Assembly: GCA_050949045.1 (NCBI GenBank)
Contig: JBMNEZ010000001.1
Span: 1 to 64,000 of the forward strand
Direction: 5' to 3'
Origin: Candidatus Izemoplasmatales bacterium
Lineage (GTDB): Bacteria; Bacillota_I; Bacilli_A; Izemoplasmatales; Hujiaoplasmataceae
DNA: 64,000 nt
Program-made: the position numbers
Shown: one piece after another, positions 15,001-33,000 of the stretch
Numbering within the stretch: the first letter of the stretch is position 1
Layout of the letters: each line of letters opens with the position of its first letter

Positions 15001-18000
15001 TCACAGTAAACAAAAAGCAAACTCAAGAAACATCATTGATGGCCAAAGAAAAATTACTTGACTATTATCTGTCGATGAAAGATAATATAAGATGATTCCT
15101 AGGGGTGTGGTGTCAACGGTAGCACGACAGTCTCCAAAACTGTTTGAACGGGTTCAAATCCTGTCACCCCTGCCATAAAAATGTTTAATTAGTAAACTAA
15201 ATATTTGAATGAATCGCCTAACAAGGCGATTTTTTCATAAATGGAAAGTCCATCTAGGTTATAGAAATGTTTCCTGGACGGACTTTTTAATACGGGCGGT
15301 GTTTTTTAATTTTTCACCCCAAAGGTTAGAAAATTTAATTTAAAATATATATATTGAGTTGTCCAAAAATTGTGGACAACTGGATATAAATATGATATAA
15401 TCATTATATGAAAAAACATTCAATTAGATATTTTAATAATAAAGAAGTAAGAGCGATTTGGGATAATGAGAAATCGATGTGGTGGTATTCAGCAATTGAT
15501 TTAATTGATATTTTAGTTGAACCAAAATCTCCAAGGAGATATTGGAATAATACTAAAGTTAGAAATCCTGAGTTGTCTCCTTTTTGTGGACAACAGAAAT
15601 TATATGCTGAAGATGGGAAAAAATATAATTCTGAAGTTATTAACGAAGAGGGAATAAAACTTCTAATAACAATAATCCCCTCTAAATATCGAAAAGAAAT
15701 TCAAAATTGGCTTAAAGGTTTACTAGACCCTATTGATGAACAAAGCAAAAAGAAAGCTTATGATTTATTTAAAACTAATCTAATAAAAAAAGATGAAATC
15801 GGAAAGACAATATCTTTACAAAAAATTCACGCTTATTTATTTGAAGGTTTATATTCTTTTGCTGGAAAAATAAGATCCAAAACGATTTCAAAGGGTGGAT
15901 TTATGTTTGCTAATGGTGATTTTTTACCCGAAATTTTAAAAGGTATTGATAAGATGCCTGATAAAACATTTAAAGAAATTGTTGATAAATACATTGAAAT
16001 GAATATTGCTCATCCATTCATGGAAGGGAATGGTAGAGCAACACGAATTTGGTTAGATTTTCTTCTTAAAGATAGAATTAGTAAATGCGTCGATTGGTCG
16101 AAAATTGAAAAGGAAGCATATTTATCAGCAATGAAACAGAGCCCGTATAATTCAAAACCTATTTTTGAGTTATTGCAAAATGCTCTAACTGAAGATATCG
16201 ATAACCGCGAAGTTTTCCTTAAAGGTATTGATTACTCATATTATTATGAGGAAGAGGAGTAATTATAATATCAATATGATTCTATGAAAAGCAATACATA
16301 TTTTAATATGGGAAAGGTAAAATGAGACCAAAGGAATATTTAGAAAATACAACGGGTGACTCTGCGTTATCATTTTGCTAATGTATAATTAATTATAAGA
16401 AGGTGATAACATGGAAAAATTTCATTTTGAAATACCATCATTAGGAAGAAAAAATGAAATCATTGAATATCTAGATGAATTTGTAAAGTATGGTTCTGAT
16501 ATTAATGGCAGTGGTGGTTTAGATAAAATTTATGAGGGCTATACTTTTGAAGAAGCTTTAGATAGATGTTTAAAAATGGAAGATGAAGAATATGCAAAAA
16601 GAGTTGGAAGAAGCCAAGCAAAGGCATTTTTATTAATTAGGGAAAGTGATGATAAAATAGTTGGAACTATAAATGTTAGATGGAATTTAAATGAAGCAAT
16701 GTTACAATTCGGGGGACATATTGGTTTTGCTGTTAGGCCATCTGAAAGAAAAAAAGGGATTAATAAAGCTAATTTATATCTGGGAATGATTGAAGCTAAA
16801 AAAGTTGGATTAGATAGAGCGAGGATAGATTGTGATGTTAAAAATCTTGGGTCTGATAAAACACTAAAGGCTCTTGGTGGTACACTTGAAAGAACAGAGG
16901 TAGATCCTTCAGATGGAACTTTAACAAATGTGTATTGGTTTAATGTTGATGAAACAATAAATAATTATAAAAATATTTATGGACAATTTATTTCAATTTC
17001 TAGTGGGATAAATTGAAATAACATAAGTGTTCAATTTTCCCTCAAAATGTATGATAAAAGACTTTTTAACCAGTTTTAGACAAATACCAAAATAGTAGCA
17101 ACTTTCCCCTAAAATACCCCAAAAATACCTCAAAAGGTATTCTAGCGGTTTTTTAGTAGTTTTATGTAAATGTATGCTTTTTTGCTAAACTTTTTGTATT
17201 AAAGGTGGTGCCATAAAAATGTTTAATTAGTAAACTGAATATTTGATCAAATCACCTAAAAAGGCGATTTTTTCATAAACGGAAAGTCCAACTGGGTTAT
17301 AAAATGTTTCCTGGTTGGATTTATTTAAATACTAATATTGGTTTTTAAAATCTCGCACCAAGGGTTCGAACTCTTCAATTTAAAAACACGAATACGAATT
17401 TTAATTTACTACACCAGTTTTAATTTATAAAAAATAATCGTTTATCAAGACGTATGATAAAATAAAGATAGCATGAAATAATAGAGTATTACTTATAGTT
17501 GTTAAAGGCTGGTGTAAATAAAATGAATATAGATGTTTCAATAATAAATGATTATTTGAATGATGAAGTTTCGTATGAAAAACATTGGATTTTTAATAGT
17601 ATATTAGGAAATAATCAATACCTTTTTGATAAGCCTTCACATAATCTTAAAGAAAGTATATCTAGTACAATGAAAAAAGTTATTGATATTCTTAAGTCTT
17701 TTATTCCGTATAATGTTGTTTTATTTTCTAAACTGTTTCTTAACTGGAAAGAATTAAGTAAAAATGTCAATGTGATTTTAGCTGTTGGATGTCCAAAACC
17801 ATATGATGCCATGATTAGAGAACATAATGAGAAAGACTATATAATTTTAGATTTAGTTCGTCTTTTGGATTATCATGAGGATATTTCTGAGGTTATTAAA
17901 AAGTTTTTTACACACGAATTAATACACGTTTGTATTAAGGTTGATTATCCATTTAATATAAAAAACGAATCAAGTTATAAAAAGATATTAGAATATTTAG

Positions 18001-30000: not shown

Positions 30001-33000
30001 GTCTAATCTTACTGGGGTTACCCTGGGCAAAAACGTTCATACAATTGGCGATAGTGCTTTTGCCAGATGTAGTGGTCTAACCGCGGTTGAACTGCCAAAT
30101 AGCTTGCGCCATCTTGGTATGGGAGCTTTTGAAAATTGTGACCAACTTGGAACTGTTAAATTTGGCAATCAACTTGAGACAATTGGTTCTCAAGCTTTCT
30201 ATAACTGTAAGTCTCTAACAAACATTGTTTTACCTGAAAGTCTAACTTCAATCGGCTCCTACGCCTTCTATTCTTGGCCAGACAATATTGTTTATACGGA
30301 ACACGATAATGGCCGTTATTTAGGTACGGCGACCAACAAACATTTTGCTCTAATTAAGACTAATTCAGAGTATATTACCTCAATAAGCATCCATGCTGAT
30401 ACACATATAGTCGCCGATGGAGCATTTTCAAGTTGTACAAAACTTACAGGTGTAACGATTCCTGCCGGCGTTGCGTATTTAGGAGACTCTCTCTTTTATA
30501 ATTGCTTTGCACTTACATCTCTTAGTGTAGAAAACGGCAACACCAAATACTCATCGCCAACTAATAATAAGGCAATCATGGAAACAGCGACTGATAAACT
30601 CTTATTTGGCCTAAAAGACGGCTATATCCCTGAAGGAACAAAAATCTTAGGCGATTCGTGTTTTGCCTACTTTAACCTAAAAGAAAGCGCTATTGCCATC
30701 CCAAACAGCGTTGTCGAACTAGAAGCGGGAGTTTTCTATAATTCATCGCTGCCTAGCACGTTTACAATTCCGAATAGCGTTACAAAAATTGGTAATGGAG
30801 CTTTCCAATACTGCTCAAATATGCAGTTGCTTACTCTTAGTAATCAAATTAAAATAATCAATCCTTGGACTTTCTCCGGTTGTGATGATCTAACTTCAGT
30901 TACAATTCCCGATTCAGTTACGATAATTGGCGAATATGCGTTCAACGGTTGTGATGGACTTGTTACTGTTAACTTTGGATCTAATGTTAGTCTTATTGCG
31001 GATGCCGCTTTTAGCGGTTGTGCTAAATTAGGTAATCCTCAATTAAATAATAATCTTCGTGTTATTCATGGTGGTGCTTTTAGTGGCTGTAGCTTAATTA
31101 CATCAATCGAATTTGGCGAATATTTAATTCATCTTTCTGGGTCTGCTTTTATAGAAGCACCTATAACTTCAATTTCAGTTCATGCCGATAATCAATATTT
31201 TGATTCGCGTACGGACTGTAACGCCGTTGTCAGTAAAAAGAGCAATATTCTTGTTATGGGCTGTGTAAATTCTACGATTGATCCAACTGTAGTTGGTATA
31301 GGTCCATATGCTTTCGCGAGTACGGCAATTACAAATATTACATTACCTGCAAATGTCGTCACTCTGGGAGCCGGCGCATTTAATGATTGTCGATTCTTAA
31401 CTTCAATCACAATACAAGGCGAAGTTACTGCTATCCCTGAAAATTGTTTCCTTTATTGTACTGAATTAAAAAACTTCGTGATTCCAAGTTCGGTTACCTC
31501 TTTAGGCAATAATGCCTTTGGGGATTGTCCGTTTACAACAATTGAAATACCAAGCACAGTCACCTCAATTGGCGCATATTGCTTTAGCTACTGTGAATCT
31601 CTTACAGAGATTGTAATTCCTAGTAGCGTTACCTCTCTATCCAATGGTGTTTTCTATGGCTGTAGCGCTCTAAGTAAGATTACACTGCCCGAGGAATTAA
31701 CTTCAATTGGAAATTATACTTTCTCAAACTGCTCTAATTTAAATAGTATTGTAATTCCTAGCACTGTTACTACAATTGGACAACGGGCCTTTAATTCTTG
31801 CGCAAACTTAAGTATCTTTGCGATGGCCAGCGAATTACCATCTGGCTGGGGCTCTACATGGAATCCTGCTAATTGTCCAGTTTACTGGTATAGCGAAACA
31901 CCAAACTATGATGGTAGCCATTGGCGATATGTTGAAGGTATACCAACCGTTTGGCATAATTAAGTATAATTGATTAAATTATGGCGATAATAGAATACGA
32001 TTATCGCCTTTTTTCTGCTAAATTGACAAATGATGCAAAGATAAGGAAAATGAAATCAGAGAAAAAAAATGACACTTAAAGAAAAGATAAAAATATTCTA
32101 AAAACACCTATAAAGGCTATACAAAATTAAAGAAAAGCAAACAAGCTGATTTCTGTAATGAGCATGCCACAGAAATTATTTTATTTGAGAATGCAAGAAA
32201 ACATGGAACTAGCACAGGTAAAAAAGAACGAGTCAGACCTATAAAATTTAGCTGGAATATCATATAGTAATAACAACATTTGCATAATAGAGGGCTGATT
32301 GATATAAAAAGACAGTAATAATTTATGAATCAATTCATCACAAAAATACAGAAAAAGTAATAAATTATCTTTCCGGACAACTATCAATTAAATTTTTAAA
32401 ATTACAGGATATAAAAACTTTAGAACCAAAAGAATTTGATTTGATTATTCTTGCATCGGGAACTTATAATAATGAACTTCATGCAGGGATACTTAAATGG
32501 TTAAAAAGTGCAGACATTAAGGATAAAGAAATAGGAATATTATATACCTGTGGTTTTAGGTATATGGATTATTCAAAAAAAATAAGAAAGTATATTATAG
32601 ATAATGGCGCAAATTATATTAGGAGTTGTTGATGTCGAGGATATGACACCTATGGTTTCTTCTCTAAGAAAGATAAAAAAACAACTGTTTTCGGCGATAT
32701 CAATGAAACTCCTTTCGTAAGATAACTTTTATAATCGCTCAATCTCAACTTTCAGTTTCATATTTTCTTTTCAAACCATTCAATTGTAGTTTCAAGGTTT
32801 AATATGCCAACGGGCCTCCTTTTTCTTGTCTCATTTCTTCCCAATCTGACTTTTTAAATCGTCCTTGTCATTTTATCAATAAGCGCGCAGTCGCATAACT
32901 ATAAATGAGGATGCTACATTGTATTTTGTAGCACAAGCTCCAATTGAGATATACTTACTCCAATGACCTTCATGATTTTCAATTTTTCGGTATCGGTATA

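Follow-up and report, generated by a model that had tools for sequence, protein, structure and literature searches.

Recombinase-less defence-gene cassettes probably stacked in tandem at the 3′ end of tRNA-Trp in an Izemoplasmatales bacterium

Layout of the tRNA-Trp island

The window analysed here, the first 64,000 nucleotides of contig JBMNEZ010000001.1 of a Candidatus Izemoplasmatales bacterium (GCA_050949045.1), carries an accessory-gene island at 15.2–33.1 kb, directly behind tRNA-Trp(CCA) (Table 1). This tRNA is one of only 2 of the 46 in the genome to end in CCTGCCA; upstream of it lies only an HMA-domain gene. The composition of the island is foreign, with a G+C content of 25–31% versus 44% for the genome. 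The island is made up of cassettes of one to three genes, about 2–5 kb long and without a recombinase gene, and of copies of a composite repeat for which we use L for the left arm, R for the right arm and core for the point where the two meet.

By Pfam and PADLOC, the cargo consists mostly of defence genes or defence candidates. For example, the Fic protein of cassette 1 is PADLOC candidate PDC-S04, and the enzyme of cassette 4 is called as type IIG (E 2.4e-169). Cassette 1 also has a promoter-like site at 15373–15401 (11/12 match), and the 62-aa ORF of cassette 3 begins at 22685, within the R arm. Relatives of the BspA-type surface protein are cargo at two loci from other sources (L039 and L069) and at 765.8–768.8 kb.

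Table 1. Features of the tRNA-Trp island, in window coordinates
Feature	Position	Strand	Evidence
tRNA-Trp(CCA), candidate integration target, ends CCTGCCA	15101..15175	+	ARAGORN; Rfam tRNA 56.5 bits
Putative attL-type junction: tRNA end and R arm; 28-base core 15171-15198, two terminator hairpins, GGTTCGAAC-like box	15171..15359	+	nhmmer R profile E 3.3e-53
Cassette 1: promoter-like palindrome, BRO-N/Fic protein (15408-16262), GNAT (16411-17016)	15360..17028	+	Pfam
Joint 1, attP-like: L arm, core TGGTGCCA (17206-17213), R arm	17029..17400	+	L E 1e-46, R E 2.1e-52
Cassette block 2: 266-aa protein of no assigned family (17499-18299), AAA_14/DUF4143 (18458-19762), AAA_14/DUF4143 (20350-21552), GNAT (21694-22317)	17401..22355	+	Pfam; PADLOC PDC-S01
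Joint 2: L arm, core AGGTGCCA (22544-22551), R arm	22356..22737	+	L E 6.3e-52, R E 1.2e-52
Cassette 3: 62-aa ORF, 23-bp tandem repeats (23005-23120), AAA_14/DUF4143 (23131-24390), 262-bp non-L end	22738..24652	+	Pfam
R arm joined at TGCCA (24660-24664) to sequence neither L nor tRNA	24653..24844	+	R E 3.7e-52
Cassette 4: restriction-modification fusion enzyme (25014-26972), specificity subunit (26956-28053), half specificity subunit (28074-28595)	24845..28606	+	Pfam N6_Mtase, Methylase_S
Decayed joint: L arm 28607-28779 ending short of core, 139 unrelated bases, degenerate core and R start 28919-28960	28607..28960	+	L E 4e-49; repeat family D3 76%; 21/28 core bases
BspA-type leucine-rich-repeat surface protein, last cargo gene	28970..31963	+	Pfam LRR_5 E 3e-161
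Low-G+C gene debris to right insertion edge	31964..33148	.	Comparison with same-genus G004

The repeat and its copies

A blastn search of 17017–17498 against the whole genome returned eight matches, reproducing in position and identity every copy listed in the preliminary description, and profiles built from the copies recovered full halves at E 1e-46 to 8e-54 and partial halves at E 7e-19 to 1e-26 (nhmmer). Among the copies in the window, the first, an R-only copy at 15165–15359, begins with the last bases of tRNA-Trp. Outside the window, L lies on the minus strand at 765612–765420 and again at 782445–782570, with its continuation and the start of R at 784738–784897, the latter two being a single joint interrupted by an IS21-family element. 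A weak L-like stretch was also found at 771803–771712 (profile search, E 0.11). Finally, a shortened L at 797395–797502 runs via TGGTG into the 3′ end of tRNA-Ala(CGC). The inverted tRNA-Ala junction of the preliminary description is real, but it is a single case, and its partner junction was not found. The second island, at 765–797.5 kb, had been read as one cassette array like the first. It is not a single array: copies are far fewer, and its middle holds tRNA-Gly(GCC) together with a GH43 gene whose G+C (42%) is core-like.

The L arm is about 190 bp long with repeated CCTCAAAAGGTATG-like words, and a deletion between two direct repeats inside it gave rise to its short form. The R arm, also about 190 bp, has two terminator hairpins and a conserved GGTTCGAAC-like box, followed by the cassette's own putative promoter; in hairpin 1, pairing is kept through a double change, from CGCC/GGCG to TGCC/GGCA. 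The TGGTG|CCA meeting point was reproduced, all three full joints in the genome reading GGTGCCA, and at all junctions the arms switch partner at, or a few bases from, the TG before the tRNA's CCA. Reading the L end against the R start revealed no convincing inverted symmetry beyond TGG..CCA. In this genome the copies are 76–90% identical, joints have been lost and an IS has inserted, all of which gives the array an aged and partly decayed appearance.

Related arrays in other genomes

The repeat had been described as species-specific and as a composite of the sequences natively downstream of tRNA-Trp and tRNA-Ala. Neither claim survives comparison. Within the genus, R follows none of eight tRNA-Trp loci and inverted L none of seven tRNA-Ala(CGC) loci; in G004, only 158 bp separate tRNA-Trp from the EF-G-like gene region, versus 17,973 bp here (15175 to 33149). 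Beyond the genus, six other species representatives and seven metagenome contigs have R flush against the 3′ end of tRNA-Gln(TTG), tRNA-Gln(CTG) or tRNA-Trp, followed downstream by full L-R joints, and both halves travel with cassettes at tRNA-Gln. Across the collection scanned, only 6 other species representatives have the core motif, so it cannot be a widespread native flank of tRNA genes. The tRNA flanks derive from the element rather than the element from the flanks, and the presence of R at several tRNAs elsewhere, together with the same-genus loci, identifies L-core-R as a probable attP-like joint between tandemly integrated cassettes.

Junctions were counted in 16 sequences (this genome, 8 genome loci and 7 metagenome contigs, several of them near-duplicates). 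Their 25 R starts comprise 11 that follow a tRNA 3′ end, 11 that follow an L end, 2 that follow other sequence and 1 that follows the 3′ part of a tRNA-Gln cut by a contig end, while 12 of 15 L ends run into a core. All three target tRNAs end in CCTGCCA, the only stretch that they have in common, and share only TGCCA with the L-R joints; even so, first insertions are flush to the base in 12 of 12 cases.

Between closely related loci the difference can be a single unit. L067 differs from L070, L071 and L056, whose flanks are 96.5–99% identical, by one 2,809-bp unit that runs from TGCCA to its own L-arm end and lies between tRNA-Gln(CTG) and the next cassette. This could equally reflect a deletion between two cores. 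One cassette (AAA_14, 400 aa) follows tRNA-Trp in G043 and tRNA-Gln(CTG) in L067, with identity beginning at the tRNA end.

Cassettes of the window recur in the same way. Positions 20116–24475 are collinear with two cassettes and their joint in L067 (92.9%). Within block 2, 18361–19812 is 88.5% identical to L069/L072/L034, and the part from 20116 on matches, at 92.9%, an L067 cassette that stands alone beside tRNA-Gln; the block consists of at least two fused cassettes. Cassette 3 is 89% identical, from the core onward, to an L041 cassette adjoining tRNA-Gln(CTG). Homology to L039 begins at 24657, with 24657–28752 about 90% identical and cassette 4 matching L039 1786–5953 at about the same level. 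Overall, the window's cassettes share 87–93% DNA identity with those of the other hosts, versus 54–58% identity between the EF-G-like proteins, and the same cassettes are present in distantly related wall-less bacteria of anaerobic digesters. The loci of the other hosts have a G+C content of 28–32%.

No truly empty tRNA-Gln site was seen in the low-G+C hosts; L035 and L068 have a short form and then AAA_14 cassette remains. Clean junctions of L and core with native flank were not found at the far ends of the arrays, and neither a circular form nor a site left empty within a single population turned up. Public sequencing runs are stored as contigs, which break at the repeats. The joints listed from these runs have sides of only 21–38 letters; two in X11 are exceptions, at 64 and 131, and the longer one corresponds to the arrangement of another organism.

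Recombinase genes

No array contains a gene for a tyrosine integrase or large serine recombinase, and the window island has no Pfam match to Phage_integrase or Resolvase; a small resolvase-type gene in the G041 array is the sole recombinase-type gene within arrays. The tyrosine recombinases of this genome, all outside the island, are XerD, an XerC-like protein and an 81-aa integrase fragment at 1162.7 kb. XerC/XerD-type enzymes are the only recombinases common to the array genomes searched, with 2 genes each in this genome (G000), G041, G044, G045 and G089; G043 has 4 tyrosine recombinases. Integron-integrase models matched only the two Xer proteins of this genome, at 83–156 bits where the cut-offs are 265 and 435. 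Serine recombinases were not found in G000, G044 or G089. Paired large serine recombinase genes occur in G041 and G043, and the large serine recombinases of G041, G043 and G045 lie away from the arrays, with no core, L, R or tRNA nearby. Y1 (PF01797) and IS110-type DEDD (PF01548) transposases were above cut-off in 0 of 5 genomes, which sets these cassettes apart from IS200/IS605- and IS110-type elements.

Discussion

We propose, with a probability of roughly 0.7, that the island is a tandem array of small mobile cassettes stacked site-specifically at a tRNA 3′ end by a trans-acting recombinase. A circular cassette would carry an attP-like site consisting of L arm, core and R arm, followed by the promoter; recombination would link the core to the 3′ end of a tRNA gene whose last bases are CCTGCCA, leaving a tRNA-R near end, an L far end and a rebuilt L-core-R between neighbours. 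The recombinase would be supplied in trans and new cassettes would enter beside the tRNA. What the sequences show is the anatomy, the specificity for tRNA ends in several species, the one-unit strain difference, cassettes held in common by distant hosts and a foreign composition; the circular intermediate, a conservative site-specific recombinase and the point of entry are inferred. The suggestion in the preliminary description that recombinase-less cassettes were stacked at a tRNA 3′ end, with the two halves meeting at the tRNA terminus, gains from R being flush with three tRNAs elsewhere, from the one-unit strain difference and from the cassettes in common.

The closest known counterparts are cis-mobilizable elements (CIMEs) and their tandem accretion at tRNA genes, reportedly treated by Pavlovic in 2004 and Bellanger in 2011; this way of building an island is already known. 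CIMEs of the Streptococcus ICESt1 family are described as lacking integration genes while keeping both att sites, and as standing one behind another at a tRNA 3′ end, separated by chimeric att sites and presumably moved by the integrase of another element (PMC5704250). Like them, the window island is without integration and transfer genes and shows tRNA-R at 15171, L-core-R at both full joints and L at 28607, a pattern repeated in other genomes. Unlike CIMEs, these units have only one to three genes; traces of integrase or transfer genes are missing from them, so there is no clear sign that they decayed from a larger element. The tRNA overlap is limited to the last 5–7 bases, and three tRNA species, plus one inverted tRNA once, are used. 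Further, no related integrase-bearing element was found in the limited collections searched (6 genomes, 7 metagenome contigs, viral contigs, plasmids and phages), and none of the viral contigs, plasmids or phages combined L or R with an integrase.

Genomic islands at tRNA and tmRNA genes, as presented for Islander (PMC4383910) and for the tandem ssrA islands of Dehalococcoides (PMC3146451), likewise insert site-specifically on the 3′ side and form tandem arrays, which drive strain diversity, and some are without an integration module. In those islands the gene is split by the integrase, and a displaced piece of it, tens of bases long, lies at the distal end (PMC4383910, PMC3146451). Here, by contrast, joints repeat only TGCCA of the tRNA and to its left read GGTGG, GAGG or CTGG, which is not tRNA; the identity block lies downstream of the tRNA gene, and no tyrosine integrase gene stands beside it.

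Other parallels concern how the cassettes are handled. Integrons gather small cassettes in one orientation at a fixed entry point, rebuild the site between them and keep the recombinase outside the cassette. These arrays share those features, down to a new unit beside the entry point in one strain pair, but lack both an IntI gene and an attI carrying a common promoter. An attC-like hairpin is also missing, as no inverted repeat pairs L with R and the only hairpins are the two terminators in R. Because each joint, about 380 bp long, brings terminators and a promoter, the cassettes are probably self-expressed. At the 3′ end of rlmH, a conserved gene, SCC and composite SCCmec islands likewise stack recombinase-less cassettes with short direct repeats, and paired large serine recombinases mobilise them in trans. 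Such pairs exist in two of our hosts, but not near an array or core motif and not in G000, G044 or G089, and the target here is a tRNA end.

Finally, elements that exploit Xer (IMEX) and the dif-like modules of Acinetobacter plasmids are small gene units bounded by a short site and without their own recombinase, as are our cassettes. The same cassettes might be moved by host XerC/XerD, the core being a degenerate Xer site with no dedicated integrase. We consider this unlikely. Xer genes are indeed the only recombinases common to all array genomes searched, with serine recombinases missing from three of them and Y1/IS110-type transposases from five of five, an argument weakened because the MAGs are incomplete. 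The right part of the core, ATTAGTAAACT, equals the outer 7 bases of the XerD arm in the dif of low-G+C hosts, TTATGTAAAC, which occurs at one site per genome in 4 of 5 such hosts and 0 times in controls, and TGGTGCCATAA ends in CATAA, resembling an Xer arm. However, the core departs from the 11-6-11 arrangement seen at dif in these genomes: its arm-like parts lie 9–10 bases apart rather than 6 and match at only 5–8 of 11 positions, the XerD-like arm at 5/11 when set against this genome's dif (634733, minus strand). Two L ends, that at tRNA-Ala here and one in G089, break within the supposed XerC arm.

A site-specific enzyme could also be dispensed with altogether if L and R serve as portable homology, that is, as terminator and promoter modules; homologous or short-homology recombination following the uptake of DNA would then exchange, add or remove cassettes. 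Long arms conserved between cassettes, the joint movement of two-cassette blocks and the origin of the short L form all suit such exchange, as does the L067/L070 difference, which falls inside about 30 bases of identity where deletion between repeats is possible. We nevertheless regard it as about as unlikely as the Xer reading, as the arms of different cassettes, at only 75–80% identity, are poor substrates, first insertions are flush in every case despite the minimal sequence in common, and the inverted L end meets the exact 3′ end of tRNA-Ala.

An ancestral locus of convergent tRNA-Trp and tRNA-Ala, its flanks later duplicated and rearranged within the species, was the alternative offered in the preliminary description; this genome alone has both R after tRNA-Trp and inverted L after tRNA-Ala, but the bare same-genus flanks and the same L and R at tRNA-Gln in distant genomes contradict this origin and leave it hardly any probability. 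That L-R is a small, non-autonomous MITE-like transposon in the spacers between immobile genes, as its short (about 350–380 bp), non-coding, multi-copy nature might suggest, is just as improbable, since terminal inverted repeats and target duplications were not found, R stands alone at tRNA ends 12 times, and the units that distinguish strains or recur in different hosts extend from one core to the next, genes included.

If stacking by a recombinase acting in trans is correct, the arrays offer a compact, sequence-defined pair of sites with which to hunt for the enzyme, the first an attP-like site some 380 bp long and the second a tRNA end that has only 5–7 bases in common with it. Were the mover an ordinary integrase on an unsampled element, they would be a clean example of cis-mobilizable mini-islands; were it a host protein, they would be a second, independent solution to the role played by integrons. 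A more speculative and on balance unlikely extension is an integron-like capture of defence genes in wall-less digester Bacilli without a cassette-borne or array-linked integrase. Host XerC/XerD acting on a wide-spaced site, or a recombinase outside recognised families, would integrate self-expressed mini-cassettes wherever a tRNA gene ending in CCTGCCA offers its CCA terminus. The near-palindromic TGG-TG-CCA core would also permit inverted insertion at tRNAs ending in ...CACCA, such as tRNA-Ala, and cassettes would circulate between orders in the habitat. The arrays themselves show exchange between phylogenetically very distant hosts, in one habitat, of restriction systems, of Schlafen-type and AAA_14/DUF4143 defence candidates and of BspA surface proteins. 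The host genomes are about 1–2 Mb in size and have few recognisable mobile elements.

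Repeat structure and cargo

The genome is a single contig of 1,356,138 bases, and blastn of the spacer 17017-17498 against all of it reproduced exactly the matches of the preliminary description, so the composite repeat copies lie where it had placed them; the observation itself is real and well supported. Aligned copies yielded two profiles, one for each half, or arm (L and R), with which the genome was searched (table). R starts with the last tRNA bases, TGCCA, and all three full joints, in which L meets R across a short core, read GGTGCCA. The 797 kb L copy runs via TGGTG into the 3' end of tRNA-Ala(CGC), which is on the opposite strand; this short L is missing what lies between two internal direct repeats. 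At 782/784 kb an IS21-family element splits a single joint. A weak L-profile match at 673 kb proved to be ordinary sequence. Near 775.35 kb, where the 775-797 kb island has its left edge, resemblance to R was marginal (best score 68 versus a shuffle maximum of 66), with the other three R copies scoring inside the shuffle range, and was left unused.

R carries two terminator hairpins, one of them preserved via a compensatory change; beyond them come a conserved palindrome and a promoter. The palindrome (TTGAGTTGTCC, 7 bases, GGACAACT) overlaps a near-consensus promoter directly 3' of R and is kept in cassettes whose cargo is unrelated; it may be an operator common to cassettes. The R arm closes with a conserved box that ends in ACCAAGGGTTCGAAC and resembles a tRNA T-arm, but neither ARAGORN nor Rfam recognises it as a tRNA. 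As Rfam over 15000-33300 (E up to 0.1) matched tRNA-Trp alone, L and R contain no known RNA. CCTCAAAAGGTATG-like words recur in L and could be arm-type binding sites: all four matches in the window fall within L arms, one of which holds two, versus 1.56 expected anywhere in the window, although these matches are not independent because the L copies are homologous.

Behind tRNA-Trp(CCA) lie about 18 kb at 25-31% G+C (genome, 44%), in which every gene is on the plus strand. This first island carries five groups: a BRO-N/Fic protein with a GNAT; a 266-aa unknown protein, two AAA_14/DUF4143 ATPases and a GNAT; a third AAA_14/DUF4143; a methylase-type restriction-modification enzyme with one and a half specificity subunits; and a BspA-type leucine-rich-repeat protein. 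PADLOC assigns AAA_14/DUF4143 to PDC-S01, the Fic protein to PDC-S04 and the methylase to type IIG enzymes. In locus L039 a single 382-aa specificity gene plus an ORF of 85 aa correspond to the full-length and half-length specificity genes seen here, a difference that may reflect specificity shuffling. Directly upstream of AAA_14/DUF4143 genes, here and in other genomes, a 23-base unit (AAAACTCTTGAAAAATCCGGAAT-like) occurs two to four times in tandem, which may be an operator or iteron array. The low-G+C stretch between the BspA and EF-G-like genes contains short ORFs alone and is probably the remains of older cargo.

The second region, at 765-797.5 kb, carries BspA, AbiEi/AbiEii, Schlafen-type genes, a STAND NTPase, methylases and a Z1/DUF4420 set. 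As it also contains tRNA-Gly(GCC) and a GH43 gene of 42% G+C, it is not a single array.

Repeat arms and associated features (contig coordinates, identical to window coordinates up to 64,000; E, profile E value)
Feature	Position	Strand	Remarks
tRNA-Trp(CCA)	15101-15175
R	15165-15359, 17202-17400, 22541-22737, 24653-24844		E about 1e-52 to 1e-53
R, partial	784803-784897		E 7e-19
L	17029-17212, 22356-22550, 28607-28779		E 1e-46 to 8e-54
L	765612-765420	minus	E within 1e-46 to 8e-54
L, two pieces	782445-782570 + 784738-784812		profile match
L, shortened	797395-797502		profile match
Degenerate core and R start	28919-28960		immediately ahead of BspA gene
Palindrome and promoter	15354-15401; L070 about 11000-11050
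Box ending ACCAAGGGTTCGAAC	17324-17371, 22664-22711, 24770-24817		duplicated in L067
23-base repeats	20064-20110, 23005-23120; L066 about 5630-5680; L035 about 340-400
Specificity genes	26956-28595		behind restriction-modification enzyme
Low-G+C stretch	31964-33148
IS21-family element	782571-784737 (outside window)	minus	istA 420 aa, istB 247 aa; within L arm; 5-base duplication ATGCT
Shared stretch	20116-24475		collinear with two L067 cassettes and their joint, 92.9%
Shared stretch	22547-24475		L041, from core onward, 89% identity
Shared stretch	24657-28752		L039, about 90% identity
Shared stretch	18361-19812		L069, L072, L034, 88.5% identity
Shared BspA gene	765.8-769 kb		L069, 86.8% identity
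dif candidate ACTTCCTATAATATATATTATGATAACA	634733-634706 (outside window)	minus	genome's single best match
Tyrosine recombinase fragment	1162701-1162931 (L003 1432-1662)		C-terminal, 76-81 aa

Origin of the two arms

The repeat had been interpreted as the native flanks of tRNA-Trp and tRNA-Ala. Comparison within the genus speaks against this origin. Eight of nine other species have a tRNA-Trp match, and in all eight the tRNA is followed by the species' own flank, in none by R; inverted L is likewise absent at seven same-genus tRNA-Ala(CGC) loci. In one relative of the same genus (G004) the region from the tRNA to the EF-G-like gene measures 158 bp, compared with 17,973 bp in the source genome, which makes the whole of 15176-33148 an insertion. 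Among 40 relatives the L-R unit was not found, apart from marginal similarity over 24 bases in one match and 44 in another. A search for the empty site at tRNA-Ala gave no match in the source genome for the relatives' downstream flanks.

Distribution and mobility

Nor is the repeat species-specific, as had been proposed: a 24-base core pattern matched six other species representatives and seven metagenome contigs. The earlier interpretation was thus half right, in that stacking at tRNA ends stands, whereas native-flank origin and species specificity do not. The six representatives are MAGs titled Acholeplasmataceae, Acholeplasmatales or Bacilli. A looser core pattern added no further species among genome contigs, the core and joint patterns had no matches in viral contigs, and the L-R unit matched neither plasmids nor phages. 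A 17-base L pattern occurred at no fewer than 119 genome loci and at 10 viral loci; of 129 loci compared with the L/R profiles, only two matched, both in hosts already known, and the others were chance matches.

Identity of the window's EF-G-like protein reaches 89% with MAGs titled Candidatus Izemoplasmatales, whereas with the array-bearing genomes it is only 54-58%. Because NCBI titles are inconsistent (one 'Acholeplasmataceae' MAG reaches 79%), we judged host distance by such identities rather than by names, and on this measure the cassette-bearing hosts are distant.

In these other hosts R sits flush with the end of tRNA-Gln(TTG), tRNA-Gln(CTG) or tRNA-Trp, with L-R joints downstream. Across 16 sequences, 11 of 25 R starts follow a tRNA, 11 follow an L end, 2 follow other sequence and 1 follows part of a tRNA-Gln cut by the contig end, while 12 of 15 L ends lead into the core; these counts are not independent, as several sequences are near-duplicates (L070 and L071 are 99.9% identical to L056, L068 repeats L035 and L066 repeats L040). 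Every forward target terminates in CCTGCCA, an ending found here in 2 of 46 tRNAs, tRNA-Trp and an unoccupied tRNA-Gln(CTG). Sequence to the right of the L end in the array-bearing genome G089 proved not to be a tRNA.

Two loci from strains of one species, L067 and L070, differ by a complete unit. Their flanks are 96.5-99% identical, and L067 has one additional 2,809-bp unit with AAA_14 (400 aa) and GNAT as cargo. Placed immediately after tRNA-Gln(CTG), it begins at TGCCA, finishes where its own L arm does, and has an R that diverges from that of the next cassette immediately past the core. The same AAA_14-GNAT cassette stands behind tRNA-Trp in another array-bearing genome, G043.

Parts of the window are present in 20 public runs from 16 studies, labelled nearly all as digester, bioreactor or sludge. 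Contig depth at 19.9-24.5 kb was far above that of the flanks in two of four runs examined, which, with summed contig depth being a crude measure, fits the presence of the same cassettes in other, more abundant genomes. Much of the array was matched, with 1-9 differences, by contigs of a run from a different study (X3); the array is therefore stable from sample to sample. Contigs of four runs end at repeats, and for most joints the sides measure 21-38 letters. The sole well-supported joint that goes back (131 letters, run X11) was considered as a circle, but matches the L067 arrangement, that of another organism.

Proposed mechanism

If circles that each carried an attP-like L-core-R integrated in tandem, they would leave the order seen here: tRNA-R first, L-core-R joints next and L last. 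The arms exchange partners at or beside the TG preceding CCA. To the left of this TG the sequence varies among tRNA, L ends and GCGCT (at 24653), and to its right among R, inverted tRNA-Ala and GGAATACC (in G089); the 765 kb L end is ambiguous. The core, TGG-TG-CCA, is a weak palindrome. tRNA positions 72-73 are TG in forward targets and CA in tRNA-Ala, so a recombinase guided by the central dinucleotide would insert in the opposite orientation at tRNA-Ala, as this single case suggests. The partner junction at the other end of that insertion was not found.

Comparison with known elements

Among described kinds the cis-mobilizable element comes closest; the cassettes differ from it in that their family has no known integrase-bearing relative. 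The tandem islands at Dehalococcoides ssrA are similar, and some of them are described as having no integration module (PMC3146451). Compared with known tRNA-end elements, the units here are tiny and self-expressed and use several tRNA species. Almost no tRNA sequence is duplicated, which places them outside the Islander criterion as outlined in PMC4383910. Narrow literature searches on Acholeplasma islands, tRNA and cassettes and on Izemoplasmatales mobile genetic elements showed no description of this cassette family among the papers listed.

Candidate recombinases

The tyrosine recombinases of the source genome are XerD (over the equivalog cut-off), a XerC-like protein and an 81-aa fragment; no serine recombinase was found there. 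Only two Xer-type genes are present in each of four array-bearing genomes (G041, G044, G045 and G089), and G043 has four tyrosine recombinases. That the host's XerC/XerD moves the cassettes is a minority possibility, against which stands the core, only loosely similar to dif and wrongly spaced. Should the recombinase prove to be a host enzyme, the arrays would be of greater interest. The dif candidate came from a Firmicutes-type motif (4 mismatches at the best site, 8 at the next best), and four of five other hosts have one dif-like site per genome; a generic palindrome scan and a short XerD-arm motif scan were both uninformative. In related low-G+C genomes a similar dif site lies 1.5-4 kb from a Xer gene.

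AAA_14/DUF4143 was dropped as a hidden mobility enzyme: PADLOC counts the protein as a defence candidate, DUF4143 appears, with its function unknown, in a list of PD-(D/E)XK families, a related domain is termed restriction-endonuclease-like in a preprint, and a PD-(D/E)XK-type nuclease alone cannot account for conservative recombination. A tyrosine recombinase near tRNA-Gln in G043 belongs to a different element, and that tRNA-Gln has no core behind it. The large serine recombinases of G041, G043 and G045 are unlinked to the arrays, with no tRNA, core, L or R nearby, and Y1 and IS110-type enzymes are absent from all five genomes searched for them.

The tyrosine recombinase fragment of the source genome borders a tRNA cluster, with the 3' end of tRNA-Phe about 350 bp away; it is probably what remains of a different integrated element.
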